From positions 3,522 through 67,521 of the forward strand of contig CAMGEN010000004.1 in NCBI GenBank assembly GCA_946055075.1: DNA of 64,000 bases, written 5' to 3'. The position numbers and the translations under genes were made by a program. The notes below the pieces were generated by a model. The model was given only the letters and a program-made list of their open reading frames with translations, had not been told where the DNA came from and made no database searches. Positions 6,417 through 55,829 of the stretch are shown one piece after another (the stretch's first letter is position 1; every line of letters begins with the position of its first letter). This DNA comes from an uncultured Verrucomicrobiota bacterium. Its GTDB lineage: Bacteria > Verrucomicrobiota > Kiritimatiellia > RFP12 > UBA1067.

Positions 6417-6498
6417 GAAAAAGCACTTGCTTATCGGCAAGAAGAATGTTACTATTTTGGTTAAAAGCCTCGTTTGTGGGAATCTAAGGAATGCAATA

Positions 6499-11017: not shown

Positions 11018-11071
11018 CGGACAGGTGTCCGTTTTGGTAAAGAAAATTACGGACAGGTGTCCGTTTTGGTA
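11017..11071. promoter_or_regulatory. Two identical 23-nt direct repeats, each holding a 7+7 inverted repeat (ACGGACA-GG-TGTCCGT); candidate operator
   Basis: acggacaggtgtccgttttggta occurs at 11017-11039 and again at 11049-11071 (32-nt period). The second copy abuts a TTGACG -35 box. Confidence 0.7.
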
Positions 11072-11107: not shown

Positions 11108-12310
11108 ATGAAGAATTATCCACGCATCTATCGGACGATTATCGCGGATCATTTCTCGCGGTCCGGACAGATGGTGTTTCTGTCCGGACCGCGTCAGGTC
11201 GGCAAGACGACCGTCGCGGAAGGGTTGGCGACCAAGTACCTGAGTTGGGACGATGACGACGCACGGCGGGCTGTTCTTTCAGGGCAAAAAGCCGTTGTCG
11301 ACGCTTACGGACTGACGGCGCTCTCCGAGACGGATAAGGTGGTAGTGTTCGATGAGATTCTCAAATACCACCACTGGAAGCAGTTCCTTAAAGGATTTTA
11401 CGACGTCTATGCGAAAGGGTTGAAAATCGTCGCGACTGGTTCCGCGAAAATGGATGTGTACAAGAAAGGCGGCGACAGCATGATGGGAAGGTATTTCCCA
11501 TATCGCATTCATCCCCTTAGTGTAGCTGAACTTCTTGATGTATCGATCCCGGGCGAATCATTGGTCAGGAAACCGCGGAAAATCTCTGATGGGGAATGGG
11601 ATGCACTATTAAGGTTTGGTGGATTCCCCGATCCTTTCGTCCGAAGGGATGTCAGATTCTCACGGCGGTGGAACTCGCTGCGTTTCGAGCAGTTGACAAA
11701 GGTGGATGTACGCGATTTGACGCAGATTGTCGAGCTGGATCAGCTAGCGATGCTGGCGGAGATCCTCGGACGGCGTTCGGGAGAACAACTCGTCTATAAG
11801 AACCTTGCTGTTGAGGTCGGCGTCGATGAGAAGACAATCAAGAAATGGGTGAAGACGTTGAAGTATCTTTATTTCGGCTTCGAGGTCCGTCCGTGGTTCA
11901 AAAACGTCGAGAATTCGATTCGCAAGACGCCGAAATGGTTTCTGCGCGATTGGTCGCAGATCGAGGATGAAGGGAAACGAGCCGAAACGCTCGTCGCCTG
12001 TCATTTACTGAAAGCGGTTGACGGCTGGACCGATCTCGGGTACGGTGATTTCTCATTGCATTACCTGAGGAACAAACAGAAGAAAGAGGTGGACTTCCTC
12101 GTGGCAATAGACAATAAGCCGTGGTTCCTGGTAGAGGTCAAGAAAAGCGACGAGGTGATTTCCGACGCTCTGGCGATGTTTCAACGTCAAACAGGGGCGA
12201 AACACGCGTTTCAAGTGGTGTTGGACTCTAAGTTCGTCAATCGGAGTTGCTTTGAGATCGATTCGCCTGTCGTCGTGCCCGCCAGAACATTCCTGAGTCA
12301 GCTGATCTGA
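11108..12310 (+). CDS. AAA+ ATPase (AAA_14/DUF4143 type) with a PD-(D/E)xK nuclease-like C-terminus
   Basis: Walker A GPRQVGKTT and Walker B-like VVVFDEI. C-terminal KKEVDFLVAIDNKPWFLVEVKKSD fits D...E-x-K. Start chosen as the second in-frame ATG; 11102 or the track start 11057 are possible. Confidence 0.75.
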   Translation: MKNYPRIYRTIIADHFSRSGQMVFLSGPRQVGKTTVAEGLATKYLSWDDDDARRAVLSGQKAVVDAYGLTALSETDKVVVFDEILKYHHWKQFLKGFYDVYAKGLKIVATGSAKMDVYKKGGDSMMGRYFPYRIHPLSVAELLDVSIPGESLVRKPRKISDGEWDALLRFGGFPDPFVRRDVRFSRRWNSLRFEQLTKVDVRDLTQIVELDQLAMLAEILGRRSGEQLVYKNLAVEVGVDEKTIKKWVKTLKYLYFGFEVRPWFKNVENSIRKTPKWFLRDWSQIEDEGKRAETLVACHLLKAVDGWTDLGYGDFSLHYLRNKQKKEVDFLVAIDNKPWFLVEVKKSDEVISDALAMFQRQTGAKHAFQVVLDSKFVNRSCFEIDSPVVVPARTFLSQLI

Positions 12311-12523: not shown

Positions 12524-14026
12524 ATGATACTTACGGCAATCGTGCTGGCGGCGAATATCGTCAGTTTCAAGGATGCGGACAAGATCAAGTCATGGGACGC
12601 GTGGGACGATCATAAGGCGAAGCATGCGATCACGAACGTTCTGCAGAAGGAGAAGCGGCGCGTCACGTGGGAGAAGCTGAATGCGCTCGATCCGGGGCTG
12701 AAGATGATCGGACGGCTCGCGGTGCGCGAGTCGAAGGACATCAAGGGCTCTAACTGGTCCATCGGTTGCGAGACCATGGACCGCGACTATGCCGATTGGG
12801 ACAGCTTCAAGGCGCTCTTGCCAGGGCTTGGCGTGAAGCACGCGCGCTTCTTCTCTGGCTGGGCGAAGACGGAACAGGAGAAGGGCGTCTACGACTTCGC
12901 CTGGCTCGATCCGCAGATCCGCGAGTGTGCGGCGATGGGCATCAAGCCGTGGATCTGCATCTCCTACGGAAACCCCGTCTGGGGGAGCGACTTTCGCCTC
13001 GGCATGCGCGTGAAGCAGGTGACCGGTAGCCCGGAGTCATTCGCGGCGTGGATCCGCTACGCGAAGGCGCTCGTCGAACGGTACAAGGATGTCGTGGACG
13101 AATGGGAGATTTGGAACGAACCGTTCGACCAGGCGCAGGAATACGCGGAGATGTTCTATCAGACCGCGAAGGCTGTAAGGGAAGTCCAGCCATCCGCGAA
13201 GTGCTACTGCACCGCGGTCTCGATGCGTCCGGACATGACGAAGAGCGATTACTTCGTGGTGCTCGAGAAGCTGAAGAAGGAGAATGCGCTTGATCTGGCG
13301 AGTTACTTCATCTATCATCCTTACGCGGAGAATCCCGACACTTCGTATGAGGCGGGCGAAGGACAGTTCGGGTGGCAGATGGCGATGCCGCTCCGCCGGC
13401 TCGTGAAGAGCTATTCGGGGAACTTCGACATCATGCAGGGTGAGGTCGGGTGTCCGAGTCAGCTTGAATACGCGCACGCGATGTGCAACAACGAGTGGAC
13501 CGAGTATTCGCAGGCGAAGTGGCTGCTCAGAAGGACGATCGGCGACGCGGTGCGTTCGATCCCTTCAAACGTCTTCACGATGATTGACCTCAAGTACACG
13601 TTCATGTTGCAGAGCTACGGACTGGTCCGTTCGAACCTGCTCCGCGAATTCGTCTACCGTCGTCCCTCGTACAACGCGATGGCGCACGTATTCAATCTGC
13701 TGGATGATGATGCGAAGCCGCTCGGCGTGGAGAAGCTTAAGTGCGGGTCGCGCGAAATTACACGGGCGAGGTTCTCGCGGTTCGGGCAGGAACTGAACTT
13801 CTTCTGGTTCTCCGATAAGCAGCCATCGAATGAGCTTGCGTTCGAGAAGGTCGATCTCGGGCAGGTCTTCGGGTCAAAGGTTGAGGGCGCGACCTGGACC
13901 GATATGATCACGGGACGCGTCTTCGAGATCGACGATATGAAGTCTGTCCCGCTTTGGGATTCTCCGGTCATGGTCGCGCCTCGCGCCTCGGTGGTACTGG
14001 TCTCGGATAAGGATGGTGTGAAATGA
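12524..14026 (+). CDS. Glycoside hydrolase, clan GH-A (GH5/30/39-like)
   Basis: AAGGAG lies 8 nt before the ATG. N-terminal hydrophobic MILTAIVLAANIV. DEWEIWNEP acid/base motif. Confidence 0.65.
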   Translation: MILTAIVLAANIVSFKDADKIKSWDAWDDHKAKHAITNVLQKEKRRVTWEKLNALDPGLKMIGRLAVRESKDIKGSNWSIGCETMDRDYADWDSFKALLPGLGVKHARFFSGWAKTEQEKGVYDFAWLDPQIRECAAMGIKPWICISYGNPVWGSDFRLGMRVKQVTGSPESFAAWIRYAKALVERYKDVVDEWEIWNEPFDQAQEYAEMFYQTAKAVREVQPSAKCYCTAVSMRPDMTKSDYFVVLEKLKKENALDLASYFIYHPYAENPDTSYEAGEGQFGWQMAMPLRRLVKSYSGNFDIMQGEVGCPSQLEYAHAMCNNEWTEYSQAKWLLRRTIGDAVRSIPSNVFTMIDLKYTFMLQSYGLVRSNLLREFVYRRPSYNAMAHVFNLLDDDAKPLGVEKLKCGSREITRARFSRFGQELNFFWFSDKQPSNELAFEKVDLGQVFGSKVEGATWTDMITGRVFEIDDMKSVPLWDSPVMVAPRASVVLVSDKDGVK

Positions 14027-15336
14027 AGTTGCAGGGTTGCATGGGTAAGTATTACAAGTGGTTTCTGCTACTCCTGCTGTCGGGGGCGTTCTTCTTCCAT
14101 CAGGCGGACAGGGCTCTCTTCGGACTCCTGACGCTTCCGATTCAGAACGAGCTCGGTCTCGATGGAGTCCAGATCGGCTGGATCAACACGGTGCTTTTCT
14201 GGACGCTTGCGGCGATGGCGTTCGTCGCGGGTCCGGTGGGCGACTGCTTCTCTCGCAAGTGGGTGATCACGATTTCGCTGATGGCGTGGTCCGTGATGAC
14301 GGTCATGATGGGCTTCGTCGGCGAGTGGCATGTGCTCGGATTCGTGCTGCCGGCGTTCGTCGTCGTGATGTTCTTCCGCTCGATCGCGACCGGCATCGGG
14401 GAGAGCTTCTACGGTCCGTGCTATCCGCCGCTTATCGCGAGTTACCACAAGGAGACGCTTTCGGTTGCGCTTTCGATCCATCAGGGTTCGCTCTATTTCG
14501 GACTCATGACGTCCGGACTGATCGTCGCGAAGACGCTCGGGCTGCTCGGTGACTGGCGCAATGTCTTCATCGCCTTCGGCGCGGCGGGTTTTGTGCTCGG
14601 ATTGTCGTTCATCTTCCTGTTGAAGGATGGATCCAACCGCGAACCACGAACCACGAACCACGAACCACGAACCTCGCTTTTCTCCGGCTACAAGGCGTTC
14701 TTCACCAATCCTTCGGCGATTCTCGCGATGTGCGGCTTCATTGCAATCGTGTTCGTCAACAACGCATATCTCTGCTGGGCGCCGAAGTTCATGGCGGTGA
14801 AGTTCATGGCGGATATGCCGATGAAGGAGGCGGTGGCGCAGGCGGGGTCCGCGACGATGCTCTGGCATCATCTGTTCGCGTTCGCGGCGATCATGGCGGG
14901 CGCGGTGGTGACGGACCGTTTTGTGAAGCGGTTTCCGCGTTTCCGTCTCGGTTTCCAGATCACGGCGCTGCTCCTGGGCGCCCCGTGTCTCGCGATCGTC
15001 GGGTTCTCGTCCTCGGCGACTATGATGATCGTGATGAGCGCGCTTTACGGCGTCTTCCGCGGCTTCTTCGAGGTGAATACCCACGCGTCGCTGTTCGACG
15101 TGATGGATCCGCGGTTCCGTTCCACTTCGGTCGGGATCTTTACGCTTTTCGCGTTTTCCTTCGGCGGACTTTCCGGCGTGCTGATGGGCTGGCTTTCCGA
15201 TGAATATGGCGTTCGGGGCTTCGAAGTCGGGTTCGGAATCATGGGCGTCACCTACGTCATCGGTGCGGTATTGATGATGATATCCTTCTTTTTCACCTTC
15301 AAAAAAGATAGTGCAAAGCTCAAGGATTTGGTATAA
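14023..15336 (+). CDS. MFS transporter
   Basis: About 12 hydrophobic segments. GPVGDCFSRKWV resembles MFS motif A. ATGA start/stop overlap with the upstream hydrolase. Confidence 0.8.
   Translation: MKLQGCMGKYYKWFLLLLLSGAFFFHQADRALFGLLTLPIQNELGLDGVQIGWINTVLFWTLAAMAFVAGPVGDCFSRKWVITISLMAWSVMTVMMGFVGEWHVLGFVLPAFVVVMFFRSIATGIGESFYGPCYPPLIASYHKETLSVALSIHQGSLYFGLMTSGLIVAKTLGLLGDWRNVFIAFGAAGFVLGLSFIFLLKDGSNREPRTTNHEPRTSLFSGYKAFFTNPSAILAMCGFIAIVFVNNAYLCWAPKFMAVKFMADMPMKEAVAQAGSATMLWHHLFAFAAIMAGAVVTDRFVKRFPRFRLGFQITALLLGAPCLAIVGFSSSATMMIVMSALYGVFRGFFEVNTHASLFDVMDPRFRSTSVGIFTLFAFSFGGLSGVLMGWLSDEYGVRGFEVGFGIMGVTYVIGAVLMMISFFFTFKKDSAKLKDLV
14641..14673. repeat. Perfect tandem heptamer (GAACCAC)x4 plus GAACC inside the MFS central loop
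   Basis: gaaccacgaaccacgaaccacgaaccacgaacc encodes EPRTTNHEPRT. Confidence 0.95.
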
Positions 15337-18239: not shown

Positions 18240-18243
18240 ATTA

Positions 18244-18271
18244 GTGAATAGTGAACAGAGAACAGTGAACA
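18244..18271. repeat. Tandem heptamers GTGAATA GTGAACA GAGAACA GTGAACA (intergenic)
   Basis: Read directly from the sequence. Confidence 0.85.
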
Positions 18272-40125: not shown

Positions 40126-43100
40126 ATGTATGATACCAAGAAGATACCTCCGGCGGTAGCGAAGATTCTGAAAGCGAGTCTTTCGCGCATTCGACACATT
40201 ATCTTGTTTCGCGGCATCTGTGCTACACTCGCCGTTTTTATCGCATCTGTTCTCGCGATCATGGCGATTGATGCGATGGTCACGATCTACTCAAACTGGG
40301 TCCGTTGGATGCTCTGGTGCGGTGTTGTCTCAGGTACTGGTTCAGTAGCCTGGTTCGCGCTTATTAAGCCGCTACGTCGCAAGATCTCGCTTTCTGATGT
40401 CGCACTCTTGATAGAGCGTAATCATCCTGAGCTGGAGGAGCGTCTGTCGACGGTCGTGGAGCTTGCGGAAGAGGGGCGGGGGGGCGAGGTGTGGTCCAAG
40501 GAACTTGTCAATGAGATCACCAAGCGCGCGATTACGGACGCTACCAAGGTCTCGCCGAAGAAGGAGTTCACCTCGCGTACGATCAAGCCCCGGTTCATCG
40601 TCGCCGCCGCCGCGGTGTTGGTCCTGCTCGGGCTCTTCGCGGCGTTTCCGACTGCTACCGCGCGACTCGTCGCGCGTGCGCTGATGCCAGCCGCCGAGGT
40701 CGACAACATCTACGCCTCGTCCCTGAAGGTTGCTCCCGGCGACCAGGTGCTGCTCGCCGGCAGCTCCTTCAAGGTGTCGCTTGCGGTCAACGGCGGCTTC
40801 CCGTCCAAGGCGTTCGTCCGCACTTCGGTGAACGGCAGGAGCGAGGCGGTCGAGCGCATGGTCCGCATGACCGAAGAGGAGGCGAAGGGTCCAATCTTCT
40901 ACGAGTTCGACTATCCTTCGGTTCACGAGAGTTTCACTTATCGCGTCAACTGTGGCAGCGCCCTCACCAAGGCGTACAGCGTGAAGGTGGTCCCGACCCC
41001 GACGTTCGTCGACCGGAAGATCCGCATCGAGCATCCTGCGTATACGGAGCGCAACCCGACCGAATACACCAACTCCGCCGAGGTCGTCGCCGTTCCTGGA
41101 TCGAGGGTAGTGATTTCGTTTAGAAAACCGCGCGAGGACATCACTGGTTACATTAAGATCCCCGGCGACTGCATCCTCGAGGCGGAGCCCGTCGGTGAGA
41201 ACGGGCTTGCCTTCGCCTTCGATGTCGGCAAGGATATGGACGGCATGTGGTCTGCGATGGCGCAGGATTCCAACGGCTTCTCGAATCAGGTCGTCTCCTC
41301 CGCGGTCACGGTTGCGAAGGACACTCCGCCCTCGGTCGAGCTTACTGTGCCGGAAACGGCCGAGATCAAGCTACCGCGTTCGGGAGTCCTGCCGGTGGAG
41401 TTCAAGGCCAAGGACGACTTCAAGGTCGCAAAGGCGGTGCTTGAGATCGCGGTCGGCACTGCCGACTACAAGGATCTGCGCGAGTTCGAGCTGTCGCAGG
41501 GACAGGACGGATACGTCGTCGGCTCCGAGATGGTGTCGATCCTCGCGCTCGGTTCGCGCCTCGGCAAGTCTGCCGCATTCCAGGTGCGCGTGCGGGTCGA
41601 AGACAACCTTCCCGAGGAACTCGGTGGACCAGGCGTCACGCGCTCCTCGTCCGTCCTCGTCGAACTTCAGACCAAGGGGCAGAACGGCAGCGACGGCGGC
41701 AAATCGCTCGGCCGGCAGGAGCTGCAGAAGCAGATCGAGGAGACCAAGAAGGAGTCGGAGGACATCCGCAGGACGCTTGAGACCGCGATGCGGCACATGG
41801 AGAACGCCAGGAACGGATACCGTCATACGAACAATCCCTGGAATCTGAACGACGCTAAGAAGAACCACGATCTCTGCAAGACCCATATCAGCAACGCGGA
41901 AGGCCTTTTCGCTGATTTCATCCAGAACCTGCTCGACACCAGACTGTCCACGGGCGCGGAGATCCTCCGCCCGGTGATGGACCGGCATCTCGTCCCCGTC
42001 CGCCAGGAGGTGGAGGATATCTACCTCGTCGACATCTCCTCTCGGTATGGCCCTGCGTGCAAGTGCTACGATCATTTCAAGGAACTCATGAAGGCGTATG
42101 ACGAGGCGCTCAAGAAATACCAGATTCTCACCAAGACCGCTGAGGACATGCAGAAGCTGGAAGACCTCAAGGAGCAGCAGGAGGCGTTGGCTGAAGCTGC
42201 TGAGAAGGGCGAGATGAGTCCGCAGGAGCTTGGCGACGCCGAGAAGCAGCTGATGGACGAGATGCAGAGGGAGCTGCAGGACGACATGCAGCGTTCGCTT
42301 GACAAGGAGATCGAGAAGGCGGAGAAGATCGCCAAGCGGATGGACGAACTCGCACAGAAGCAGAAGGATATCAAGGAGAAGATGTCCGGCGACGAACAGA
42401 AGAACTCCGAAAACCAGCTCGCCCGCGAACTCGAGAACCTGGTGCGTGAGACCGACAAGCTGCTCCAGGACGTCGAGAAGCAGACCGGGATCCCGGAACT
42501 GGACGAAAGTAGGACGGCGGAACCGCTTGAAAGCACCAAATGGAGTCAGGAGGATGCGACCGACAGCGCCAAGGATGCGGCGAAGAACCTCGGAGAACAG
42601 AAGAACGAGGAAGCCAAGGCCAACATGGATGAAGTTTCGGAGGCGCTCAGCCAGGCCAAGGAGCAGCTGACCGAAGCCCAGAACCGTATGAAGCAGGCCA
42701 ACGAGCGCTTCGCCAACGAGGCGAAGGAGATGCAGGAGCTGATGAACAAGATTAACGAGGCCATGCAGGCGGCGATGGAGGCGGCGAAGGCCGAGCTCGG
42801 CAATCAGCAGATGTCGCAGGAGCAGATGGAGCAGATGGCTCAGCAGGCGGCAGAACAGATGGCGGGTCAGGAGAAGATGTCTCCCGAACAGAGGAAAGCG
42901 ATGCTCGAGGCGATGAAGGAGAGTCTGGCGAACATGACTCCCGAGCAGGCGAAAGCGATGGCCGACGCGATGAAGGAGTCCATGAAGCAGGCGATGGAGC
43001 AGATGAAGCAGGAGTTCGGTAAGCTCTCGCCGGAAGAGCTCAAGGCGAAACTCGGCGAAATCGCAAAGCAGGCCGCGCAGGAGATGCAGCAGCAACAACA

Positions 43101-43578
43101 GCAGTCGCAGTCGCAGCAGCCGCAGTCGCCGGAGATGCAGCAGATGCAGCAGAAGTTCGAGTCCGCGGCCGAGATGATGAAGCAGCAGATGCAGCAGATG
43201 ATGCAGCAGCAGAATATGCCCCAAGAGCAATTCCAGCAACAGCAGATGCAGCAGCCGCAAAACCCGATGCAGCAGCAGATGCAGCAAATGCAGCAGAATC
43301 AGCAGAATCAGCAACAGCAGCAGGACCAGCAACAGCAGCAACAGGAGCAACAGCAGAGCAGTCAGAGCCAGCAGGAGAACCAGCAGCATCAGCAGTCTCA
43401 GAGTCAGACCAGTAATGTTCGCGAGGCTCTCGGTGAGGATGACGGCGTGGACTGGTTCCGCATGAAATCTTCTTCCTCTTCCGGTGCCGAAGCTGATCCT
43501 ATGGATGATGTTCCGAGCGAATACCGCGGATTGGTCCGTGACTATTTCAAGGCTCTCAATCAAGGAGGCAAAAAATGA
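40126..43578 (+). CDS. Membrane protein with a long coiled-coil and a Gln/Glu/Met-rich low-complexity C-terminal half (DUF4175-like)
   Basis: Two N-terminal TM segments followed by LLIERNHPELEERLSTVVEL. About 400 aa of E/K/Q coiled-coil. A Q-rich tract from 43081 to 43400. Terminal EYRGLVRDYFKALN. Confidence 0.7.
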   Translation: MYDTKKIPPAVAKILKASLSRIRHIILFRGICATLAVFIASVLAIMAIDAMVTIYSNWVRWMLWCGVVSGTGSVAWFALIKPLRRKISLSDVALLIERNHPELEERLSTVVELAEEGRGGEVWSKELVNEITKRAITDATKVSPKKEFTSRTIKPRFIVAAAAVLVLLGLFAAFPTATARLVARALMPAAEVDNIYASSLKVAPGDQVLLAGSSFKVSLAVNGGFPSKAFVRTSVNGRSEAVERMVRMTEEEAKGPIFYEFDYPSVHESFTYRVNCGSALTKAYSVKVVPTPTFVDRKIRIEHPAYTERNPTEYTNSAEVVAVPGSRVVISFRKPREDITGYIKIPGDCILEAEPVGENGLAFAFDVGKDMDGMWSAMAQDSNGFSNQVVSSAVTVAKDTPPSVELTVPETAEIKLPRSGVLPVEFKAKDDFKVAKAVLEIAVGTADYKDLREFELSQGQDGYVVGSEMVSILALGSRLGKSAAFQVRVRVEDNLPEELGGPGVTRSSSVLVELQTKGQNGSDGGKSLGRQELQKQIEETKKESEDIRRTLETAMRHMENARNGYRHTNNPWNLNDAKKNHDLCKTHISNAEGLFADFIQNLLDTRLSTGAEILRPVMDRHLVPVRQEVEDIYLVDISSRYGPACKCYDHFKELMKAYDEALKKYQILTKTAEDMQKLEDLKEQQEALAEAAEKGEMSPQELGDAEKQLMDEMQRELQDDMQRSLDKEIEKAEKIAKRMDELAQKQKDIKEKMSGDEQKNSENQLARELENLVRETDKLLQDVEKQTGIPELDESRTAEPLESTKWSQEDATDSAKDAAKNLGEQKNEEAKANMDEVSEALSQAKEQLTEAQNRMKQANERFANEAKEMQELMNKINEAMQAAMEAAKAELGNQQMSQEQMEQMAQQAAEQMAGQEKMSPEQRKAMLEAMKESLANMTPEQAKAMADAMKESMKQAMEQMKQEFGKLSPEELKAKLGEIAKQAAQEMQQQQQQSQSQQPQSPEMQQMQQKFESAAEMMKQQMQQMMQQQNMPQEQFQQQQMQQPQNPMQQQMQQMQQNQQNQQQQQDQQQQQQEQQQSSQSQQENQQHQQSQSQTSNVREALGEDDGVDWFRMKSSSSSGAEADPMDDVPSEYRGLVRDYFKALNQGGKK

Positions 43579-48771: not shown

Positions 48772-49845
48772 ATGAATAGCTTCTTGAAATCTTTGATTAT
48801 CTTACATTCTTCGCTTCTCGTTCTTCATTCTTCATTCGCATCGATTGAGGATTCCCTTGCTCGTGGTGCTGATTACCTACTTTCGAAGCAGAATGAGGAG
48901 GGCTATTGGAGCGACAGGCAGATGCCCGCGCTCACCGCGCTACCGGTCTGGGCGTTGACGGGAGGTGAAAAGGGAGCAGTGAGCAATGATCAGCTGCGGA
49001 CGGCGATTAAGAAGGGCGTTGACTACGTGCTTTCGACTCAGCGTCCGGACGGCGGATTCTACGTGCCGAAACCCGGGCGCGGCGGGTCTGGCCTCGGCAA
49101 CTATAATACGTCCGTTTGCCTTTCCGCGCTTTTCGACACCGGCATCGCGCCTACAGATGCGATGCTGAAGGCGCGCGAATACATCGCGTCCTCCCAGCTC
49201 GTTGGTGATGATACGATGGCGGGAGGTTTCGGCTATGACAGAATTTCGCGTCGTCGTTACGCCGATCTTTCCAATACCAGTTACGCGCTTTCTGCGATGG
49301 CGAAGACTGCATCGCTCGAAGAGCATCGTACGACGGGTAAAAAGGTGGATCTGGATTGGGACAAGGCGATTGCGTTCGTCGATAATCTCATAAAGAAGGA
49401 GGGGCCGGACGCAGGTGGCGCCGCTTATAACGACCGCACTCCGCAGGCCGGTAGCGAGACCAATTCGGCCGGCAAGGTCGCGCTTCGCGCCTACGGGTCG
49501 ATGACTTACGCGGCGGTGCTTTCGATGTGCGCGGCAAGGCTCGACCGCGGCGATCCGCGCGTTAGGCAGTCGCTTGAATACATGACCAAGAACTGGTCCG
49601 TGGACGAAAACCCCGGCATGGGCAATCAGGGGCTCTACTATTTCTATGACATCATGGCCCGTGCGCTTTCCGCCGCCGGTGTGGACAAGGTTGGCGAACA
49701 CGAGTGGAAGAAGGAGCTCTCGGCGAAGATGATTTCGCTTCAGAAGGCGGATGGCTCATGGAGCAATGACAACAACCGGTTCTGGGAGGCCGATCCAGTT
49801 CTCTGCACCAGCTTCGCGATGCTGGTTCTGGAGCTCTGCCGGTAA
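48772..49845 (+). CDS. Secreted prenyltransferase/squalene-oxidase repeat protein (paralogue of 43575-44615)
   Basis: Signal peptide. QNEEGYWS, QRPDGGF and QKADGSWSN repeats. Confidence 0.7.
   Translation: MNSFLKSLIILHSSLLVLHSSFASIEDSLARGADYLLSKQNEEGYWSDRQMPALTALPVWALTGGEKGAVSNDQLRTAIKKGVDYVLSTQRPDGGFYVPKPGRGGSGLGNYNTSVCLSALFDTGIAPTDAMLKAREYIASSQLVGDDTMAGGFGYDRISRRRYADLSNTSYALSAMAKTASLEEHRTTGKKVDLDWDKAIAFVDNLIKKEGPDAGGAAYNDRTPQAGSETNSAGKVALRAYGSMTYAAVLSMCAARLDRGDPRVRQSLEYMTKNWSVDENPGMGNQGLYYFYDIMARALSAAGVDKVGEHEWKKELSAKMISLQKADGSWSNDNNRFWEADPVLCTSFAMLVLELCR
48805..48839. repeat. Heptamer array CATTCTT CGCTTCT CGTTCTT CATTCTT CATTCGC in the signal-peptide coding region
   Basis: Read directly. 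Encodes LHSSLLVLHSSFA (7-aa periodicity). Confidence 0.8.
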
Positions 49846-49857
49846 CAGGGGTTAAAC

Positions 49858-50580
49858 ATGAAAGCGTTAAAGGCATCTGGTGTTGGTTATAAGTACGGTG
49901 AACAGGAGGTTCTGAAGGACTTCGAGCTCGAACTCGATGCCGGCGATTTCGTCGCGCTGATGGGTCCGTCGGGGAGCGGCAAGTCCACGTTCCTCCATCT
50001 CGCCGCCGGACTTCTCCAGTGCCAGTCCGGCGTAATTGAGATCGGTGGTGAAAACATCGCCGCGATGAGCGACACCAAGGCGACAATTTTCCGCCGTCGC
50101 CACGAAGGCGTGATCTTCCAGTCCTTCAACCTGATGGAGAATCTGACGGTCGAGAAGAACATCGCGCTGCCGTTGAAGCTGGATGGGAAGTTGAAGTGTG
50201 AAGTTGAAGAGCGGATGGAAGAGCTGTTGAAACTGTTGGGACTGGAAGGGAAGGCTCAGCGGTTGCCGCGGGAACTGAGCGGCGGCGAACAGCAGCGCGT
50301 CGCGATTGCGCGGGCGTTATTCGCGAAGCCCGAGGTGGTGCTGGCGGACGAGCCGACCGGCAATCTCGACGCGAAGTCTTCGAAGGCGATTTGCGAGCTT
50401 CTCAAGGAAGTCAATAAGTCCGAACGAAGCGCAATCCTCCTCGTCACTCACGATCCTCAGGTCGCGGCTGCGGCGAAGAAGGTCGCGTTCCTCAAGGACG
50501 GTTCCATTGCTGCAATCCACGAGACCAATGGAGATGCCGAGAAAGTGTCCCACTTATATCTCGATACCTTCAGCAAATAG
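49858..50580 (+). CDS. ABC transporter ATP-binding protein (MacB/LolD type)
   Basis: [17 protein letters not shown] and [11 protein letters not shown]. Confidence 0.85.
50188..50209. repeat. Left arm of a 22-nt inverted repeat (AAGTTGAAGTGTGAAGTTGAAG)
   Basis: Its reverse complement occurs at 50598-50619 with 21/22 identity. Confidence 0.85.
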
Positions 50581-50597
50581 TTATCGCCATTGTTCAA

Positions 50598-50619
50598 CTT
50601 CAACTTCGCACTTCAACTT
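50598..50619. repeat. Right arm of the 22-nt inverted repeat (CTTCAACTTCGCACTTCAACTT)
   Basis: Intergenic, immediately upstream of the permease start. Confidence 0.85.
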
Positions 50620-50624
50620 TGTTC

Positions 50625-52853
50625 ATGAAGGTCCGTCATGTCTGCGCAATCCTCGGAATCGCCATCGCCGTCGGCGCGGTGGTGTTCGTCCGGTCGCTGA
50701 TCGCGACGAACGATCATCAGTCCGTCGCCGTCGCGGAGCGGCTGCTGAAGGCGCTGCCTGTCGCAACGGATGCGAAAGTCGCGACGCTGCAGCTCGACTT
50801 CCGTCCCGAAGGACATGTTCTCCAGGGGCCCCCCATGATCGCGATGATCGCGACGCGAACCGGGGAATTGGGAACGGGGAATGGTGTTATTGTCAGCAAG
50901 GCGGTCTTCGCGCAGCGGAAGGTGAAGGAGCTTCCAGGGATCGGCGAAGAGCTGACGTTGGTGGGACGCAAGGGCGCGTACAAGGTCCGGATTGCCGGAT
51001 ACCTCGACTGGGAACGTCCGGTCCGCGGATATCCCAATATGTTCATCTCGCCGGAGACCGCTGCGAAGATCGACGAGGAATGGAACGGATGGGAACCAAT
51101 GACGGCGGAAGAACTTGCGCCGATGTTCCGCAGCGATGCGGGACGTAACATGGACCGCTCTAAGCCGCTTCTTCTCTGGGCTGCGGCGCTTACCGCGCTT
51201 GCGCTCCTGCTCAATTCGCACTTCCTCATGATCGAGTCCCGCCGCAGGGAGTTAGCCACGCTGCGGATGCTCGGCATGACCCGCGGCAGGGTATGCCTGA
51301 TGATGCTGGTCGAGGCGCATGTGCTGGCGGTTATCGGAGCGGTGGCCGGGTGGTTGCTGTCCATCGTCGCGCTCTGGTTGTATGTCAAAGCCGATCCGGC
51401 GACCTTCCCGATGGGGATGGCGGTCGACCAGCGGTGCCTGGGCTGTGCCTTTGCCGGAGCGGTGCTCGTCGCCGTCATCGCGACGCTGATCGCGATGAAG
51501 AGCGCGCTCGCGGTGAAGCCGCTTGAGGCGGCCTCGAATCGTCCCCCGAAGCCCCGCCGTATCGGCATGCTCATCGCCTTCGCCTGCGGATTCGGCGCGT
51601 TTGTCGCGGTCGAGGTCTGGGGCTGCTCGCTCACCAAGCCGTTCATTCCGTCAATAGAGTGGCCGGACGCGATCATCTCGATTCTCCCCGGGGGCGTTTC
51701 GAGCTTCGATATCGAGAAGTTGCAGAAGCTTCCCGGTGTAAAGAAGATCGCTGAACTCCAGCCGCTGCAGGTGAATCTTGATCCGCTGGAGGAGTTGAAG
51801 GGGCCAGTCAGTGAAGAAGGAAGAGTGAAGAGTGAAGAGTTGCGGAAGAAGAATTCTTCAAAGGGGGGATTCGGTGGACGCGGAAAGCAGTATCGCAATG
51901 CGCTGTTGCTTGCGTCCGACTGGCTCCCGGATTTTAAACTGTCCGCTGTACCACTACCACTTCCCACTACCACTCTCGCCGAGGAATTGCAAAAAGGCGA
52001 CAACTGTATCGTCACCGAAATGATGGCTCGCGCTCACGGATGGAAGGTCGGGGATTTCGTGAAGCTGGATTGCGGACGCAACCTCAAGATGGCGCTCAAG
52101 ATCATCGGCATCGTCGATCTTAACTGGCACATGGTGACGTCGCGCGGACTGGTCCGTGGACTGAACCGGATGCCGGTGAACACCGACGGACCGGTCTTCG
52201 TCTCTTTCGACACGCTCGCCGCGTGCGATGCGCGTCCGCAGGAGTTCGTCCATATGACGCATCTGTGGCTCAGCTACGAGCCGGAATTCCTTGCGAAGCA
52301 CGGTCCGTTCCCTGCGGGACGCATCGTCGAGAAGGAGATTGTCGAGGCGCTCGGCGGAGCGTATCGCGCGGATAAGGACGGAGAGGTGCATGGTAATACG
52401 GTGCGGCTGCATTCTCGCGACGAGATCGCGGATGGCACGCTCGCGCACGGCAATCAGCTCGTCGGCGCGATGGCGCGGGTTCCGTTCATCTTCATCGCGG
52501 TGATTTCACTCGGCTTCATCGCGATGCTGGTCGCGTCCGCCGATGCCCGTCGTCGCGAGTTCGTGACGCTCCATGCGGTCGGTGCGACCAAGGCGTATCT
52601 TGCGATGCAGTTGGTGTACGAGGCGCTGAAGGTCGCGCTCTGGGGTGTCGCGCTGGGAGCCGCTGGTGGGGCGCTCGCGGGATGGCTCTTCACCACCGGA
52701 ACGCGTGCGGCGATGTCTAATTGGGGCCTTCCCGCCGCCTTTGATTTTCCTGCTGTCGTGATTATCGAGGGGGCTCTCGGCGCGCTCGTCTTCGCGCTCG
52801 TCGTCGCGGTGCCTGCATCGATGGTGATAATCTCCCGCGCCTTTCGACGTTGA
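50625..52853 (+). CDS. ABC transporter permease with two FtsX-like modules (MacB/LolE type)
   Basis: RRRELATLRMLGMTRGRV and RRREFVTLHAVGATKAYL FtsX hallmark segments, each followed by TM clusters. Large extracytoplasmic domains. Confidence 0.75.
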   Translation: MKVRHVCAILGIAIAVGAVVFVRSLIATNDHQSVAVAERLLKALPVATDAKVATLQLDFRPEGHVLQGPPMIAMIATRTGELGTGNGVIVSKAVFAQRKVKELPGIGEELTLVGRKGAYKVRIAGYLDWERPVRGYPNMFISPETAAKIDEEWNGWEPMTAEELAPMFRSDAGRNMDRSKPLLLWAAALTALALLLNSHFLMIESRRRELATLRMLGMTRGRVCLMMLVEAHVLAVIGAVAGWLLSIVALWLYVKADPATFPMGMAVDQRCLGCAFAGAVLVAVIATLIAMKSALAVKPLEAASNRPPKPRRIGMLIAFACGFGAFVAVEVWGCSLTKPFIPSIEWPDAIISILPGGVSSFDIEKLQKLPGVKKIAELQPLQVNLDPLEELKGPVSEEGRVKSEELRKKNSSKGGFGGRGKQYRNALLLASDWLPDFKLSAVPLPLPTTTLAEELQKGDNCIVTEMMARAHGWKVGDFVKLDCGRNLKMALKIIGIVDLNWHMVTSRGLVRGLNRMPVNTDGPVFVSFDTLAACDARPQEFVHMTHLWLSYEPEFLAKHGPFPAGRIVEKEIVEALGGAYRADKDGEVHGNTVRLHSRDEIADGTLAHGNQLVGAMARVPFIFIAVISLGFIAMLVASADARRREFVTLHAVGATKAYLAMQLVYEALKVALWGVALGAAGGALAGWLFTTGTRAAMSNWGLPAAFDFPAVVIIEGALGALVFALVVAVPASMVIISRAFRR
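51811..51859. repeat. Heptamer array GTGAAGA AGGAAGA GTGAAGA GTGAAGA GTTGCGG AAGAAGA ending in the 12-nt palindrome GAAGAATTCTTC, inside the permease CDS
   Basis: Read directly. Encodes SEEGRVKSEELRKKNSS. Confidence 0.8.
51942..51977. repeat. C-rich heptamer module tccgctgtaccactaccacttcccactaccact (copy 1), inside the permease CDS
   Basis: 32/33 identical to 54096-54128. Confidence 0.9.
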
Positions 52854-52856
52854 TTT

Positions 52857-52865
52857 TGGTAGAAT
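52857..52865 (+). promoter_or_regulatory. Extended -10 box TGgTAGAAT, 7 nt before the ATG (leaderless geometry)
   Basis: tggtagaat-acaatca-ATG(52873). Confidence 0.5.
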
Positions 52866-52872
52866 ACAATCA

Positions 52873-53601
52873 ATGTTGAAGTCTTGGCTAAAGCTTTTCC
52901 GCGTCGTTAATCTGCCGACTGTTCCTGGCGATGTTCTCGCTGGTGCTGCGTCGTTCTCGCTTGTCGGTAACTGTTATGCGCCGGTGTGGGTCGCGTGTGC
53001 GGCCGGGCTTTCGGTGCTGATTTACATGTTCGGATTAATTGATAATGACATTGTCGGTGTTAACTCCGATATCGGGCGCCCCATAGCGGATAGGGAAATC
53101 TCGCTCAATGTCGCACGAGCGGTCCGTTTCGTTATCCTGCTAGCGGTGTTGATAGTTGCTGGATTGGTCGGGTTGCCGGTGGACTGGTACTGGGCGGCAT
53201 TCGTTTTGATCATTGCGATTCTGGTCTACAATCGCACGAAGTCCGCGTTCCTTATGGGCTGCTGCCGCGGACTCAACGTCGGCTGCGGCTTTGCGGTAGG
53301 GAGCGGGGCGGCGGAGTCGGTCTGGTTGGACTGGCGGCTGCTGGTGCCGTTCGCTGTTGCTGGGATCTTCACGCTCTACATCGCGGCGGTTACCAAGTAC
53401 TCGGAAGGCGAGGAGCATGATCCTGTGCGCAAGGTGCGGGTTGGCATGCTGATCGGCGCCCATGTCTACCTTCAGCTCTTGACGCTGATCGTCTTCGCTC
53501 TGCTCGTGCCGTCAACCGTCCCGCTGATGGTCGCCGGCGCGATTCTGCTCGTCGTCTTGAGAATCCTTAAACATACCATGCCGGGAGTATCCGCATCATG
53601 A
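52873..53601 (+). CDS. UbiA-superfamily prenyltransferase-like membrane protein (short form)
   Basis: About 8 hydrophobic segments. LFRVVNLPTVPGD and GLIDNDIVGVNSD resemble the NDxxDxxxD motif. Confidence 0.55.
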   Translation: MLKSWLKLFRVVNLPTVPGDVLAGAASFSLVGNCYAPVWVACAAGLSVLIYMFGLIDNDIVGVNSDIGRPIADREISLNVARAVRFVILLAVLIVAGLVGLPVDWYWAAFVLIIAILVYNRTKSAFLMGCCRGLNVGCGFAVGSGAAESVWLDWRLLVPFAVAGIFTLYIAAVTKYSEGEEHDPVRKVRVGMLIGAHVYLQLLTLIVFALLVPSTVPLMVAGAILLVVLRILKHTMPGVSAS

Positions 53602-54644
53602 AGTCCATTCAGGAAATCGTCGATCTCGCCAGTGCCTACTACGGTAGTGCCGTCCTTTTCGCCGCCATTGACAATGACGTGTTCGCACGCGTCGAGCAGG
53701 GCGAGTTCAACGCGGCAGAACCGCCGCGGGGGATGCGGTTGCTGCTGGATGCGTGCGTCGCCGAAGGACTGCTGGAGAAGACGGATGGCAGGTACGCCAA
53801 CACCCAGGCCGGAAAGATGGCGCTGATTCCAGGCGGTCCGGCGGATCTTACCAAGGCGATCCGCTACAACCGCGACGTCTATCCCGCGTGGGGCAGGCTT
53901 GCCGAGTTCGCTAAGACCGGTAAGCCCGTGGAGCGTCCCGAGCTCCACCTCGGCGAAGACTCCGCACGGACCAAGGCTTTCGCCGCCTCGATGTTTGGAC
54001 GTGCGATGGGCATCGGCAAAGGCGTCATCACGATGCTTGATTTAGTTGTAGTTGAGAGTGGTAGTGGTACAAAGGCTGATAAAGCTCTTGATGATTCCGC
54101 TGTACCACTACAACTTCCCACTACCACTATTCACGTCCTCGACCTCGCCGGTGGACCGGGCGCGTACGCGATTCTGATGTGTCAGGCGAATCCCGGGATG
54201 AAGTGCGTTACGGTCGATCTTCCCGCGATCTCCGCGGAGGCGCAGGGCTATGTCGCGAAGTTCGGGCTTGCTGACCGCATCGAGTGCCGCGCGGGAGATT
54301 ATCATACGGACGAATACGAGTCCGAGGCCTATGATGTCGTCACGATCTTCGGCGCCCTCCACCAGGAGTCGCCGGCGCAGATCGTCGACATCCTCAGGCG
54401 TGCGCATCGCGCGCTCAGGAAGGGCGGGAAGGTGGTGGTACTCGACATGATGACGGACTCCACTCACACCGCTCCGAAGTTCTCCGCGCTCTTCGCGGTC
54501 AATATGGCGCTCACGACCGAAAACGGCTGGGTGTTCGCGGACAGCGAGCTCAAGGAATGGATGCGTGAGGCGGGATTTGTTCCCGGCGAGACTAAGCGGG
54601 TTCCTCCTCCGATGCCGCACTGGATCGTCGAGGGGTCTAAGTGA
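53598..54644 (+). CDS. Class I SAM-dependent (O-)methyltransferase
   Basis: VLDLAGGPGAYA (motif I), DLPAIS, GGKVVVLDMM. ATGA overlap with the upstream gene. Confidence 0.75.
   Translation: MKSIQEIVDLASAYYGSAVLFAAIDNDVFARVEQGEFNAAEPPRGMRLLLDACVAEGLLEKTDGRYANTQAGKMALIPGGPADLTKAIRYNRDVYPAWGRLAEFAKTGKPVERPELHLGEDSARTKAFAASMFGRAMGIGKGVITMLDLVVVESGSGTKADKALDDSAVPLQLPTTTIHVLDLAGGPGAYAILMCQANPGMKCVTVDLPAISAEAQGYVAKFGLADRIECRAGDYHTDEYESEAYDVVTIFGALHQESPAQIVDILRRAHRALRKGGKVVVLDMMTDSTHTAPKFSALFAVNMALTTENGWVFADSELKEWMREAGFVPGETKRVPPPMPHWIVEGSK
54045..54132. repeat. Inverted pair of heptamer arrays inside the methyltransferase CDS (GTTGTAG TTGAGAG TGGTAG TGGTACA ... 29 nt ... TGTACCACTACAACTTCCCACTACCACT)
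   Basis: Perfect 11-nt inverted repeat GTAGTGGTACA/TGTACCACTAC (54061-54071 and 54101-54111). The right arm is copy 2 of the 33-nt module. Confidence 0.8.
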
Positions 54645-54689
54645 AGAGGGGAATGGGGAATTGGGAATGGGGAATTGGGAATGAAGAAG
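54641..54689. repeat. Seven tandem heptamers GTGAAGA GGGGAAT GGGGAAT TGGGAAT GGGGAAT TGGGAAT GAAGAAG
   Basis: Spans the methyltransferase stop (54642-54644) and the start codon of the next gene. Confidence 0.9.
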
Positions 54690-55829
54690 CTGAACGTCAT
54701 AGCTGCGGGACTTGGATGGAAGGGTCTTGAAGCCGCCGGGATGACCGAGATGGCGGGACTGAAGTTCTCGCCGAAGGAGTCCTGTTTTCCCGCGGTCACC
54801 TGTGTCGCGCAGGCTAATTTCCGCACTGGGCTTACCCCCGCCGAGCACGGGATGGTCGCGAACGGCTGGTGGAGCGAGACGCTGAAGAAGCCGCTTTTCT
54901 GGGAGCAGAGCGCGAAGCTCGTAAAGGGCAGGCGCGTGTGGTCCGACCGCCGCGCTGCTGGCGAGAAGTTCGGGATGTTCTTCTTTCAGCAGTCGCTTGG
55001 CGAAGAGGTCGACCTCGTCATTTCGCCGGCGCCGGTTCACAAGCACGGCGGCGGGATGATCATGGCGTGTTACACGCAGCCGACGGGGATGGAGGCGATC
55101 ATCAGGAAGCTCTGCGGAAAGTTCCCGTTGTGGCGGTATTGGGGTCCGCTCGCGTCTCCGAAGGTCGGACGCAAGTGCATCGCGTACTTCAACGCGATGA
55201 CGGACGCGCATGATGTCGACGAGGCGTATCTGTACCTGCCGACGCTGGACTATACGGCGCAGAAGTACGGTCCCGCTTCGTCGCAGCACGCCTCGGCGCT
55301 GAAGGAGTTCCGTCATCAGCTGGAGACGCTGTCGGACATCTGCATGCACCGCGGTTGCGAGCTTTCGGTGGAGGGCGATTACGAGATCACCGAGGTGACG
55401 ATGGTTCCGGTGTGTCCGAACGTGGCGCTTCGCAAGGCGGGGTTTTTCAAGACGCGCACGGTCGGCGGCATGGCGTATCCCGACTTTTATCAGTCCTCGG
55501 CTTTCGCGATGTGTGACCACGAGTTCTGCGTCGTCTGTGGCGAGAAACGCGACGAGGCGGTGAAGCTCCTCCTTGCCACCGGCGAATACGAGCTGCCTCC
55601 GCAACCAACCTGTTCCCTGCTTCCCGCTCACTGTTCCCTGCTCCTCGCGAAGCGAGGAGCGTGGTGCGAGTACAAGTGGTGGACCGATGACCGCGAGGCG
55701 CCCGACTTCGCTTCGCACGTCGATATTCATAACAAGCCGGGCTTCGATCCAAAGGAGCTCTTCTTCTTCAACCGCGGCACTGTCCGCGGCACCCATGGGC
55801 GTCAGTGCCAGGTTGCTGCCGCGTTGTGA
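54681..55829 (+). CDS. Alkaline-phosphatase-superfamily nucleotide pyrophosphatase/phosphodiesterase-like protein
   Basis: FPAVTCVAQANFRTGLTPAEHGMVANGWW matches the metal-site Thr/His region of type I phosphodiesterases. Start is ATG 54681 or TTG 54675. Confidence 0.65.
   Translation: MKKLNVIAAGLGWKGLEAAGMTEMAGLKFSPKESCFPAVTCVAQANFRTGLTPAEHGMVANGWWSETLKKPLFWEQSAKLVKGRRVWSDRRAAGEKFGMFFFQQSLGEEVDLVISPAPVHKHGGGMIMACYTQPTGMEAIIRKLCGKFPLWRYWGPLASPKVGRKCIAYFNAMTDAHDVDEAYLYLPTLDYTAQKYGPASSQHASALKEFRHQLETLSDICMHRGCELSVEGDYEITEVTMVPVCPNVALRKAGFFKTRTVGGMAYPDFYQSSAFAMCDHEFCVVCGEKRDEAVKLLLATGEYELPPQPTCSLLPAHCSLLLAKRGAWCEYKWWTDDREAPDFASHVDIHNKPGFDPKELFFFNRGTVRGTHGRQCQVAAAL
55610..55660. repeat. Heptamer array CTGTTCC CTGCTTC CCGCTCA CTGTTCC CTGCTCC running into a 9-bp-stem hairpin GCTCCTCGC-GAA-GCGAGGAGC, inside a CDS
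   Basis: Read directly. The 12-nt ctgttccctgct repeats at a 21-nt spacing. Encodes CSLLPAHCSLLLAKRGA. Confidence 0.75.

Follow-up and report, generated by a model that had tools for sequence, protein, structure and literature searches.

A 33-nucleotide patch shared by a permease gene and a methyltransferase gene of an uncultured Kiritimatiellia bacterium: probable templated copying between short tandem arrays

Introduction

How does a stretch of 33 nucleotides (nt) come to lie, almost unchanged and in the same reading frame, in two genes that otherwise have nothing in common? This question is raised by an operon in a 64,000-nt stretch of DNA from an uncultured Verrucomicrobiota bacterium (Kiritimatiellia; RFP12; UBA1067; assembly GCA_946055075.1, contig CAMGEN010000004.1, positions 3,522 to 67,521 of the forward strand), referred to here in its full length as the window. 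A first-pass annotation had called attention to the pair, one copy in an ABC permease gene and the other in a methyltransferase gene, and had proposed that it was produced either by a recently active mini-insertion tolerated in frame or by gene conversion between micro-arrays. We aligned the operon (ABC ATPase, permease, UbiA-family protein, methyltransferase and phosphodiesterase-family protein) from 10 contigs, namely the window and nine related contigs from related gut/rumen bacteria. Contigs are referred to below by number (L001 and so on), and the array sites of the operon by letter (A to J). The findings discussed below are best explained, in our judgement with fair probability, by short-patch templated copying (ectopic gene conversion or template switching) between short tandem arrays, with the permease as donor and the methyltransferase as recipient.

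Results

Two near-identical copies of an irregular array in unrelated genes

The permease copy (site E; TCCGCTGTACCACTACCACTTCCCACTACCACT, 51942-51974, forward strand) and the methyltransferase copy (site H; TCCGCTGTACCACTACAACTTCCCACTACCACT, 54096-54128, forward strand) were identical at 32 of 33 positions, the single mismatch being C at 51958 versus A at 54112. Both started at codon position 1 of a long open reading frame (ORF), the former in an FtsX-type permease (ORF 50619-52853, with two FtsX permease domains, Pfam FtsX, and its ATG at 50625) and the latter in an O-methyltransferase (ORF 53598-54644, with O-methyltransferase and dimerisation domains, Pfam Methyltransf_2 and Dimerisation). 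The encoded peptides were SAVPLPLPTTT and SAVPLQLPTTT, respectively, and BLASTP of one protein against the other confined their similarity to a 12-residue patch. The first-pass annotation was correct on the two 33-mers, their coordinates, their single-base difference and their shared codon phase, as well as on the lack of any other similarity between the host proteins. With up to 3 mismatches allowed, the 64-kb window contained 2 matches, which were the known copies, and no third, compared to an expectation of 0.00 from 100 dinucleotide-preserving shuffles. The match is thus genuine, and chance does not account for it. A 30-mer of the module had 0 matches in 185,579 GTDB genomes (a set without the source genome), while a scan of JGI metagenomes with a degenerate 23-mer returned 4 matches, each an unrelated low-GC (ACCACT)n microsatellite and none in a related context. 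Both copies also occurred in an independent assembly of the window species (L083), and L001, L002 and L090 carried one each.

The 33-mer proved to be an irregular tandem array of 6- and 7-nt units, TACCAC-TACCAC-TTCCCAC-TACCAC-T, behind a 7-nt non-repeat head, TCCGCTG. Tandem Repeats Finder reported period 6 for both copies, with 4.2 units and 80% matches at 51949-51974 and 4.3 units at 54103-54129; each is thus a head-to-tail array of at least 2 units of the 6-8-nt class. Simple arrays can converge, as illustrated by an (AAGTCG)n-like array in an unrelated locus (L014) that matched the array module at site A of the operon (described below) at 26 of 28 positions, and independent slippage expansion in the two genes was considered for this reason, together with an assembly artefact. 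However, the irregular succession of units (6, 6, 7, 6 nt) is the same in both copies, as is the head TCCGCTG, and the longest exact match between the modules and 74 arrays from unrelated Kiritimatiellae loci was 16 nt. Likewise, an artefact is difficult to reconcile with the presence of both copies in L083 and of single copies in three other contigs. The shared irregularities and the independent assemblies effectively refute both explanations, to which we assign a negligible probability.

Short arrays of this kind were abundant. The window contained 18 arrays of period 6-8, compared to a mean of 3.5 and a maximum of 7 in 30 dinucleotide shuffles, and is therefore enriched for them relative to its composition; close relatives contained 0.4-1.0 arrays per kb. 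Their units were diverse (AGTGAAG, GGGAATN, AACCACG, TGCAGGG, CAACTT, TCTTCAT and others). Rather than being predominantly intergenic, approximately two-thirds of the window arrays, including both 33-mers, were in frame within ORFs, and those in intergenic DNA were placed right at start codons.

The methyltransferase copy lies in a lineage-specific insertion

Alignment of the methyltransferase DNA revealed a lineage-specific, in-frame insertion of 69 nt (23 codons) at 54066-54134 (forward strand), composed of a 30-nt unique part (GGTACAAAGGCTGATAAAGCTCTTGATGAT), the 33-mer and ATTCAC. A set of 28 methyltransferase orthologues was ~80% identical over the full length except for the linker between GIVPML and RVLDLAGGPG. 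This linker measured 12-15 residues in 34 of 35 motif-matched GTDB orthologues and 18 in the longest, compared to 38 in the window. Among the aligned orthologues, only those of the window, L083 (P0001; same species, independent assembly) and L001 (P0002) carried the 69-nt insertion. It was absent from L002, L084, L085 and L091, while L090 had a different array at this position; some relatives bore other repeat-like inserts in the linker, such as three copies of RIPNPEP in P0060. No second copy of the 30-nt part was found in any locus retrieved. In the AlphaFold model, residues 147-177 were coil and residues 152-174 had a predicted local distance difference test score (pLDDT) below 50, placing the insert between the last helix of the N-terminal part and Rossmann strand beta-1. 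Thus the view that a mini-insertion was tolerated in frame holds for the methyltransferase, in which nearly all orthologues lack the segment. In contrast, the 33-mer does not behave as a recently active module: it had no defined ends, terminal repeats or target duplication, and no further copy in the window.

The insertion contributes to an imperfect, 87-nt hairpin at 54043-54129 (forward strand; inverted repeat I3, 83% complementary), with 29-nt arms at 54043-54071 and 54101-54129 around a 29-nt loop, and the methyltransferase 33-mer forms its right arm. The predicted RNA fold was -38 kcal/mol (z=-4.5), with a z of -4.25 for the DNA fold, and the orthologous hairpin of L001 was more stable still (-44.9 kcal/mol, z=-5.8). 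The core of the left arm, GAGAGTGGTAGTGGTACA (54054-54071, forward strand), had exact inverted matches to the permease module of 15 nt (51947-51961 vs 54057-54071) and 14 nt (51964-51977 vs 54054-54067). Judged from these matches, GAGAGTGGTAGTGGTACA may represent the permease module in reverse complement, shortened by the collapse of one 13-nt unit. We also considered whether the C/A difference between the 33-mers could be a quasi-palindrome 'correction' toward the left arm, and rejected this idea since, by hand check, A weakens pairing in that register.

Elsewhere in the same gene, a 54-nt segment encoding part of the methyltransferase N-terminus (53691-53744 in the window) was replaced by a (GAGAGTT/GAGGGTT)n-like array in L001 (4082-4135) and L090 (13124-13177). 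The length was unchanged while the peptide went from RVEQGEFNAAEPPRGMRLL to RVESSELRVEGLSRGERLL, indicating overwriting rather than insertion.

The permease copy is a long-standing array allele

The permease copy had a different history. At site E, orthologues down to 66% identity encoded related S-A-[VLA]-[PQ]-L...T-T-L peptides, indicating that the permease array is older than the methyltransferase copy; other lineages had unrelated arrays at this site, and distant orthologues had short non-repeat linkers. The permease copy is therefore not a recent insertion but a long-standing array allele. The refuting observation which that annotation had named, the same peptide at the same position in orthologues of both proteins across the phylum, was looked for and not found, so the 33-nt segment is not an ancient native sequence. 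The 5' TCC of the 33-mer corresponds to a Ser codon of the permease flank that was conserved in all lineages; together with the depth to which site E peptides of this type extend and the restriction of the site H copy to the window, L083 and L001, this makes the permease the probable donor. The AlphaFold model of the permease placed site E in coil, with pLDDT below 50 at residues 446-450, so that both copies fall in low-confidence coil.

Residues 395-422 of the permease, which correspond to site D, likewise had pLDDT below 50. Site D is an AGTGAAG array (51810-51840, forward strand), in frame and 130 nt upstream of the permease 33-mer, and site C is a GGGAATN array (50857-50884, forward strand), in frame in the N-terminal periplasmic domain. 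Sites C, D and E were all hypervariable and all lay in low-confidence loops of extracytoplasmic domains. The segment from site D to site E was considered as a single inserted element and rejected, since the intervening KQYRNALLL..SDW was conserved in orthologues at 41-61% identity. When the AGTGAAG array was paired with the permease 33-mer as a hairpin partner, the fold was no better than that of shuffles (z=-0.25).

Array alleles turn over throughout the operon

In flanking DNA, L001, L002, L084, L085, L090 and L091 were mostly 94-98% identical to one another, with L091 lower in some blocks, and 85-92% identical to the window; L092 and L093 were 76-84% identical to the window. Within 6 kb, at least nine sites (A to J) carried unrelated arrays from one contig to another, in mosaic combinations. 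Sites A, C, D, E and H each displayed 2-4 unrelated arrays among lineages that were 94-98% identical in their flanks. At site E the array was of ACCACT, ACTGCTC, CTCTTCA or CAACTT type, and at site D of AGTGAAG, AAGTCGA, CAGGGAG (ten units) or GGTGGAG type. Site C varied in copy number, with 21 additional nt in L001 and L002, and in L085 and L091 the site D module had overwritten it. Arrays at orthologous sites thus vary in both length and sequence.

Four further sites were similarly positioned in or beside genes, all on the forward strand. Site A (50187-50209), within the ABC ATPase and in frame, is a GAAGTT array with three unrelated allele classes in relatives. Site B is a TTCAAC array in the ATPase-permease spacer (50593-50619), and site I is a (GGGAATN)5 array in the methyltransferase-phosphodiesterase spacer (54648-54683). 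Site J (55609-55644) is a CCTGYTC array, likewise in frame, in the part of the phosphodiesterase-family gene that encodes the region near the C-terminus; this position was occupied by non-array sequence in L002, L084 and L085 and by a AATCAAAC array in L090.

Two incidental features of the relatives were noted. Position 1 of L084 fell inside the AGTGAAG array of site D, and since the contig starts inside the array, arrays evidently break short-read metagenome assemblies. An extra ORF of 138 residues lay between the permease and the UbiA-family gene in L085 (8795-9211) and L093 (3933-4349, with a weak FlxA match), and was absent from the window, L001, L002 and L084.

Patches are copied between sites, in both orientations

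Several of the alleles described above recurred as exact patches at other sites of the operon. Sites C and D shared a direct, exact match of 36 nt between L085 or L091 and L002, which included the site D flank GAGTTGCGG, and one of 25 nt within L091. Sites D and A shared a direct, exact match of 33 nt between L001 and L002, inclusive of the site A flank CAGCGG, and were similar by eye, again in direct orientation, within L093. Two sets of inverted copies were exact, with no donor flank noted: 32 nt between site E of L084, L085 and L091 and site D of L002, and 33 nt between sites E and C within L085 and within L091. A third inverted copy, at site E of L093, matched the window-type site A module at 28 of 29 positions by eye and included AGCGGA. 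Finally, site I of L085 was replaced by a copy of the site D module together with site D flank, in direct orientation (17 nt exact); this copy carried AGTGAAGAGTTGCGGAA, and its left junction fell in 9-10 nt of microhomology, AAGTGAAGAG. The site D modules of L001, L090 and L093 came from site A, as did, in inverted form, the site E array of L093. Site D of the relatives was the donor of copies at sites C, E (inverted) and I.

The exact recurring patches measured 21-36 nt and varied in length and ends. Several carried unique flank of the donor and ended in microhomology, so that these events in the relatives, through GAGTTGCGG(AA), CAGCGG(A) and AAGTGAAGAG, bear the marks of copied tracts. All direct copies from one coding site to another kept the donor reading frame. 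Within the clade, 43 inter-site comparisons reached 20-36 nt, compared to the maximum of 16 nt in the control with unrelated loci described above. A GCGGA motif borders sites A and D on the right, and TCCGCT is the reverse complement of AGCGGA, which, given the inverted copy in L093, explains the head of the 33-mer. The first-pass annotation had offered gene conversion between micro-arrays as one of two explanations, and it is this one that gains support, from the array nature of the 33-mers, from the exact patch copies of the relatives, some with donor flank, and from the lineage-specific substitutions described in the following section. Taken together, the additional patch copies within the operon point to active small-scale copying, and not to a mobile element or a functional motif.

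Read on the opposite strand, the site E array of L084, L085 and L091 reproduced the AGTGAAG module exactly over 32-33 nt. In L091 the region spanning sites D and E (1342-1530) could form a stem of ~35 bp enclosing 110 nt of conserved coding sequence, with a predicted RNA fold of -83 kcal/mol (z=-5.4).

These structures raise the question of whether the shared sequence is maintained by selection, either for an mRNA hairpin or regulatory structure or for a Pro/Thr-rich linker peptide needed in both proteins. The significant stability of the window hairpin, which is stronger in L001, the 35-bp long-range stem between sites D and E in L091, and the preserved reading frame of all direct copies are compatible with such a role. 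However, most orthologues work without the insertion, the corresponding sites of very close relatives contain unrelated sequences, the peptide is modelled as low-confidence coil, and the permease copy forms no significant structure. Furthermore, the two copies are 32/33 identical at the DNA level, synonymous positions included, indicating common descent rather than convergence, and because most relatives lack the hairpins, a selected RNA structure is not required. We therefore consider selection for function to be quite improbable, and a history of copying between arrays to be the better account.

The two copies have changed in concert

Lineage-specific substitutions were shared between the two genes. 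Both 33-mers of the window had G at position 4 and C at position 22. In contrast, A4 and T22 were found together in the permease copies of L002 and L090 and in the methyltransferase copy of L001. Position 17 was gene-specific throughout, being C in the permease and A in the methyltransferase. We calculate a probability of ~1/528 or less for the same two of the 33 positions changing independently. The shared G4/C22 and A4/T22 states thus imply that, after the original insertion, conversion occurred at least once more, either between the copies or with a third copy as source, and the two 33-mers conform to the pattern of concerted evolution.

Neighbouring Y1 and reverse transcriptase genes in two relatives

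Directly upstream of the ABC ATPase, L085 (4594-5604) and L090 (8221-9189) possessed an IS200-like ORF of 322-336 residues with a Y1_Tnp domain (PF01797), which scored 26.7 and 28.2 bits, respectively, against a gathering threshold of 23. Beside it in L090 was an RVT_1 reverse-transcriptase ORF (6353-8077). The window had no significant match to the Y1_Tnp ORF (best tblastn E=0.15), and tblastn with the reverse transcriptase of L090 detected no such gene in the window.

The Y1_Tnp ORF bears on another possibility: the 33-mer, or else the whole 87-nt hairpin, could be a very small mobile element akin to miniature inverted-repeat transposable elements (MITEs), Rickettsia palindromic elements (RPEs) or small dispersed repeats (SDRs), inserted in frame with a transposase supplied in trans. 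This possibility would account for a methyltransferase copy that sits within an in-frame insertion lacking in orthologues, and for a region that folds as a hairpin. However, of the two copies only that in the methyltransferase is an in-frame insertion relative to orthologues, and that in the permease has no inverted partner. Only 33 of the 69 inserted bases are shared. Neither terminal inverted repeats at constant ends nor target-site duplication was seen at the junctions in the alignments, and the other copy events differ in length and ends and carry flank of the donor gene. As for a multi-copy family, the 64 kb covered contained two copies, the GTDB genomes none and the JGI metagenomes only the unrelated microsatellites. 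The window has no Y1_Tnp homologue, and the arrays are too different from one another in sequence for a sequence-specific enzyme. A mobile element is, on this evidence, an improbable source of the pair.

The same neighbouring genes might instead belong to a dedicated system, for example one built on the Y1 HUH protein or the reverse transcriptase, that writes templated patches into hot spots marked by arrays. Such a system would fit the extreme turnover, with several unrelated alleles at each of at least nine sites among lineages 94-98% identical, the occurrence of both direct and inverted copies, and the Y1_Tnp and RVT_1 ORFs that adjoin the operon in L085 and L090. The sole difference between the 33-mers, A versus C, is one that adenine mutagenesis could give. 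On the other hand, the eight other adenines of the 33-mer are unchanged, and no trace of either gene was detected in the window. With a single mismatch between the copies and no reverse transcriptase detected, the pair does not show the features of a diversity-generating retroelement (DGR), in which a reverse transcriptase accompanies template and variable repeats that differ at adenines. The sites affected include cytoplasmic, periplasmic and intergenic ones, as would be expected of a mutational bias and not of targeted diversification, and similar heptamer arrays occur in phyla without an identified system (PMC4692102, PMC4679880). We regard enzyme-driven diversification as unlikely to have produced the pair, and favour templated copying.

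Other arrays and repeats in the window

Three arrays stood close to start codons with no recognisable Shine-Dalgarno sequence. That at 50593-50619 (site B) ends 5 nt before the permease ATG, that at 54648-54683 (site I) overlaps an ATG at 54681, and a third, at 18243-18271, lies 24 nt before an ATG at 18296 and just after a TATAAT-like box. The (GGGAATN)5 array of site I has five G-tracts and could form a G-quadruplex.

Arrays in coding sequence were also found outside the operon. A (TCTTCAT)n array at 48800-48837 encodes the hydrophobic N-terminus (MNSFLKSLIILHSSLLVLHSSFA) of a squalene-hopene-cyclase-like repeat protein (48772-49845), such that the core of a signal-peptide-like segment is seemingly built from a repeat array. 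A near-perfect (AACCACG)5.6 array at 14635-14673 encodes the central cytoplasmic loop, NREPRTTNHEPRT, of a major facilitator superfamily (MFS) transporter (ORF 14023-15336). Transporter orthologues had unrelated repeat peptides in this loop, including GTHETQGTHET, ATPATPATP and four copies of ANDRV, indicating that in-frame array turnover extends beyond the operon, to a second, unlinked gene. A CAG/CAGCAA-rich tract at 43086-43395 (ORF 40126-43578), with overlapping repeats of period 3-21, encodes a glutamine-rich region of low complexity.

An exact pair of 23-nt sequences, ACGGACAGGTGTCCGTTTTGGTA, was located at 11017-11039 and 11049-11071, just upstream of an ORF and with starts 32 nt apart. 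Each has the palindromic core ACGGACA..TGTCCGT, and the pair looks like tandem operator sites. A 15-nt inverted repeat, CGCGGTCCGGACAGA, follows 100 nt downstream (11157-11193). An Rfam scan of the window reported two tRNAs and nothing else.

Discussion

The results outlined above allow a history of the 33-mer pair to be proposed. The lineage carries many arrays, in spacers by start codons and in disordered protein loops, and these arrays would act as mutational hot spots, changing in length by slippage. In addition, stretches of 20-70 nt would be copied between nearby array sites, in direct or inverted orientation, with junctions in microhomology of a few bases. An ACCACT-type array would have been present first in the permease loop at site E. 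Its copy and a further 36 nt would then have entered an older AGTKGT-type array in the methyltransferase linker to give the 69-nt in-frame insertion; an AGTKGT-type array is visible at the recipient linker in L002, L084 and L085. Since the incoming ACCACT array is complementary to the AGTKGT-type array, its arrival would have created the 87-nt hairpin, and later conversion would have kept both copies alike. The encoded peptide is probably a tolerated disordered linker, and the 33-mer itself probably has no function.

Several observations weigh against this history. The 33-mer itself has no clear donor flank or junction microhomology, its identity between the two genes stopping sharply except for the 3-nt TCC, and the other 36 nt of the insertion have no traced source, the 30-nt part being unmatched in the retrieved loci. 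A third, master copy may exist elsewhere in a genome of which we have seen 64 kb. Because the insertion is common to the window species and to one member (L001) of a tight cluster, its distribution requires either repeated loss or overwriting, or recombination between lineages. Arrays with the same unit occur far apart (GGGAATN at 25790, 50857 and 54648; AGTGAA at 18243 and 51810), indicating that the process is not purely local. Strong hairpins (z -4.5 to -5.8) recur and could be selected, so that neutrality is an assumption. What the sequences show directly is the identity of the 33-mers, their array nature, the indel in the methyltransferase, the location in loops, the other copy events and the shared substitutions, whereas the direction of transfer, the enzymology of copying and the neutrality are inferred.

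Of the known systems, heptameric simple sequence repeats (SSRs) are the closest in form. These include (GGGAATC)n/(GGGANTN)n in Xanthomonas and GGGGA(T/C)T in Nostoc (Rehm et al. 2015, PMC4692102); a passage of that paper cites Mrazek 2007 for over-representation of heptamers, and mentions heptanucleotide repeats of Calothrix. The arrays discussed here resemble them in being short, over-represented arrays of 7-nt units, usually with 2-6 copies and often imperfect, in varying strongly in length and sequence between close relatives, and in forming some inverted pairs. The GGGAATN arrays of the window (50857, 54648 and 25790) even fall in the same motif class. However, the Xanthomonas and Nostoc heptamers are mainly intergenic with one dominant unit per genome, whereas the window has many units, ~2/3 of its arrays in frame within genes, and identical irregular patches at different sites. 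Direct repeats of the heptamer TAACTGA are known from Beggiatoaceae, cyanobacteria and Bacteroidetes (MacGregor 2015, PMC4679880). Like them, the window arrays at 50593 and 54648 lie within a few nt upstream of start codons without a Shine-Dalgarno sequence. TAACTGA repeats occasionally occur in ORFs, at the periphery of proteins, and as in the present case their hosts are dissimilar outside the part encoded by the repeat. That case nevertheless involves a single heptamer, with no patch copying or allele replacement at orthologous sites reported (PMC4679880). We found no literature linking Kiritimatiellae with heptanucleotide repeats.

The SDRs described by Elhai and colleagues in 2008 are reportedly 21-27 nt long, well below the size of MITEs, linked to tandem heptamer repeats, variably present at orthologous sites, and in some cases intragenic. 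We know of no enzyme that mobilises them. The 33-mer is similar in that it is embedded in tandem repeats and present or absent at orthologous sites. SDRs are nevertheless multi-copy families of constant sequence throughout the genome, whereas here two copies were seen in 64 kb, the other shared patches measured 21-36 nt, and boundaries were variable and included donor flank. A passage of PMC5861425 describes SDR1-8 of Nostocaceae as 'very small mobile repeated elements', and according to the same source no SDR-like repeat has been found outside that family.

Hairpin-forming repetitive extragenic palindromic (REP) elements and their REPIN arrangements, associated with RAYT (Y1) transposases, are short, extragenic repeats of constant sequence with a conserved GTAG or CGTC head (PMC3116915, PMC3733652). 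The hairpin-forming repeat and the Y1_Tnp-domain ORF beside the operon in two relatives are reminiscent of these elements. In contrast to them, however, the copies described here are intragenic and lack such a head, the arrays are heterogeneous in sequence, and the window has no Y1 gene. RPEs, as Ogata and colleagues are said to have described in 2000, are palindromes of ~100 nt found in frame within genes at surface-exposed positions, with function kept. They form a conserved multi-copy family with a consensus, whereas the hairpin here consists of two complementary arrays and a unique loop at one locus. Quasi-palindrome or template-switch mutagenesis and short-patch ectopic conversion are established bacterial mechanisms that copy short direct or inverted tracts nearby, and the present case shares with them microhomology junctions and concerted evolution of the copies. 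Such events are usually rare and single, at engineered or isolated sites, while here they form a dense network among at least nine natural hot spots.

Heptamer-type arrays have been recorded in several phyla for decades, with their origin and spread unexplained (PMC4692102, PMC4679880). The operon described here is an unusually clear natural record, with at least nine sites, several donor-recipient pairs that retain donor flank, copies in both orientations and concerted change. Short templated copying, rather than transposition, would on this record be the means by which arrays spread and replace one another. The nature and placement of such arrays were already known; what is new here is the coexistence of many units, the bias toward in-frame positions, allele replacement at orthologous sites, and patch copies that carry flank. 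Enzymes and transporters can, as the operon shows, gain 20-70 nt in frame through such copying, which can also give rise to strong hairpins inside genes, and patches of this kind cause spurious local similarity between unrelated proteins. A more far-reaching view, which is speculative and to which we attach only a small likelihood, is that gut/rumen Kiritimatiellae possess an active, possibly enzyme-assisted form of 'patch-writing', with arrays serving as landing pads and donors, that rewrites protein loops and translation-start regions in cassette fashion. If true, a single species-level population would hold several unrelated alleles per site, and the process would represent a form of hypervariation distinct from DGRs, phase-variable SSRs, shufflons and MITEs, perhaps the same as that which moves SDRs in Nostoc.

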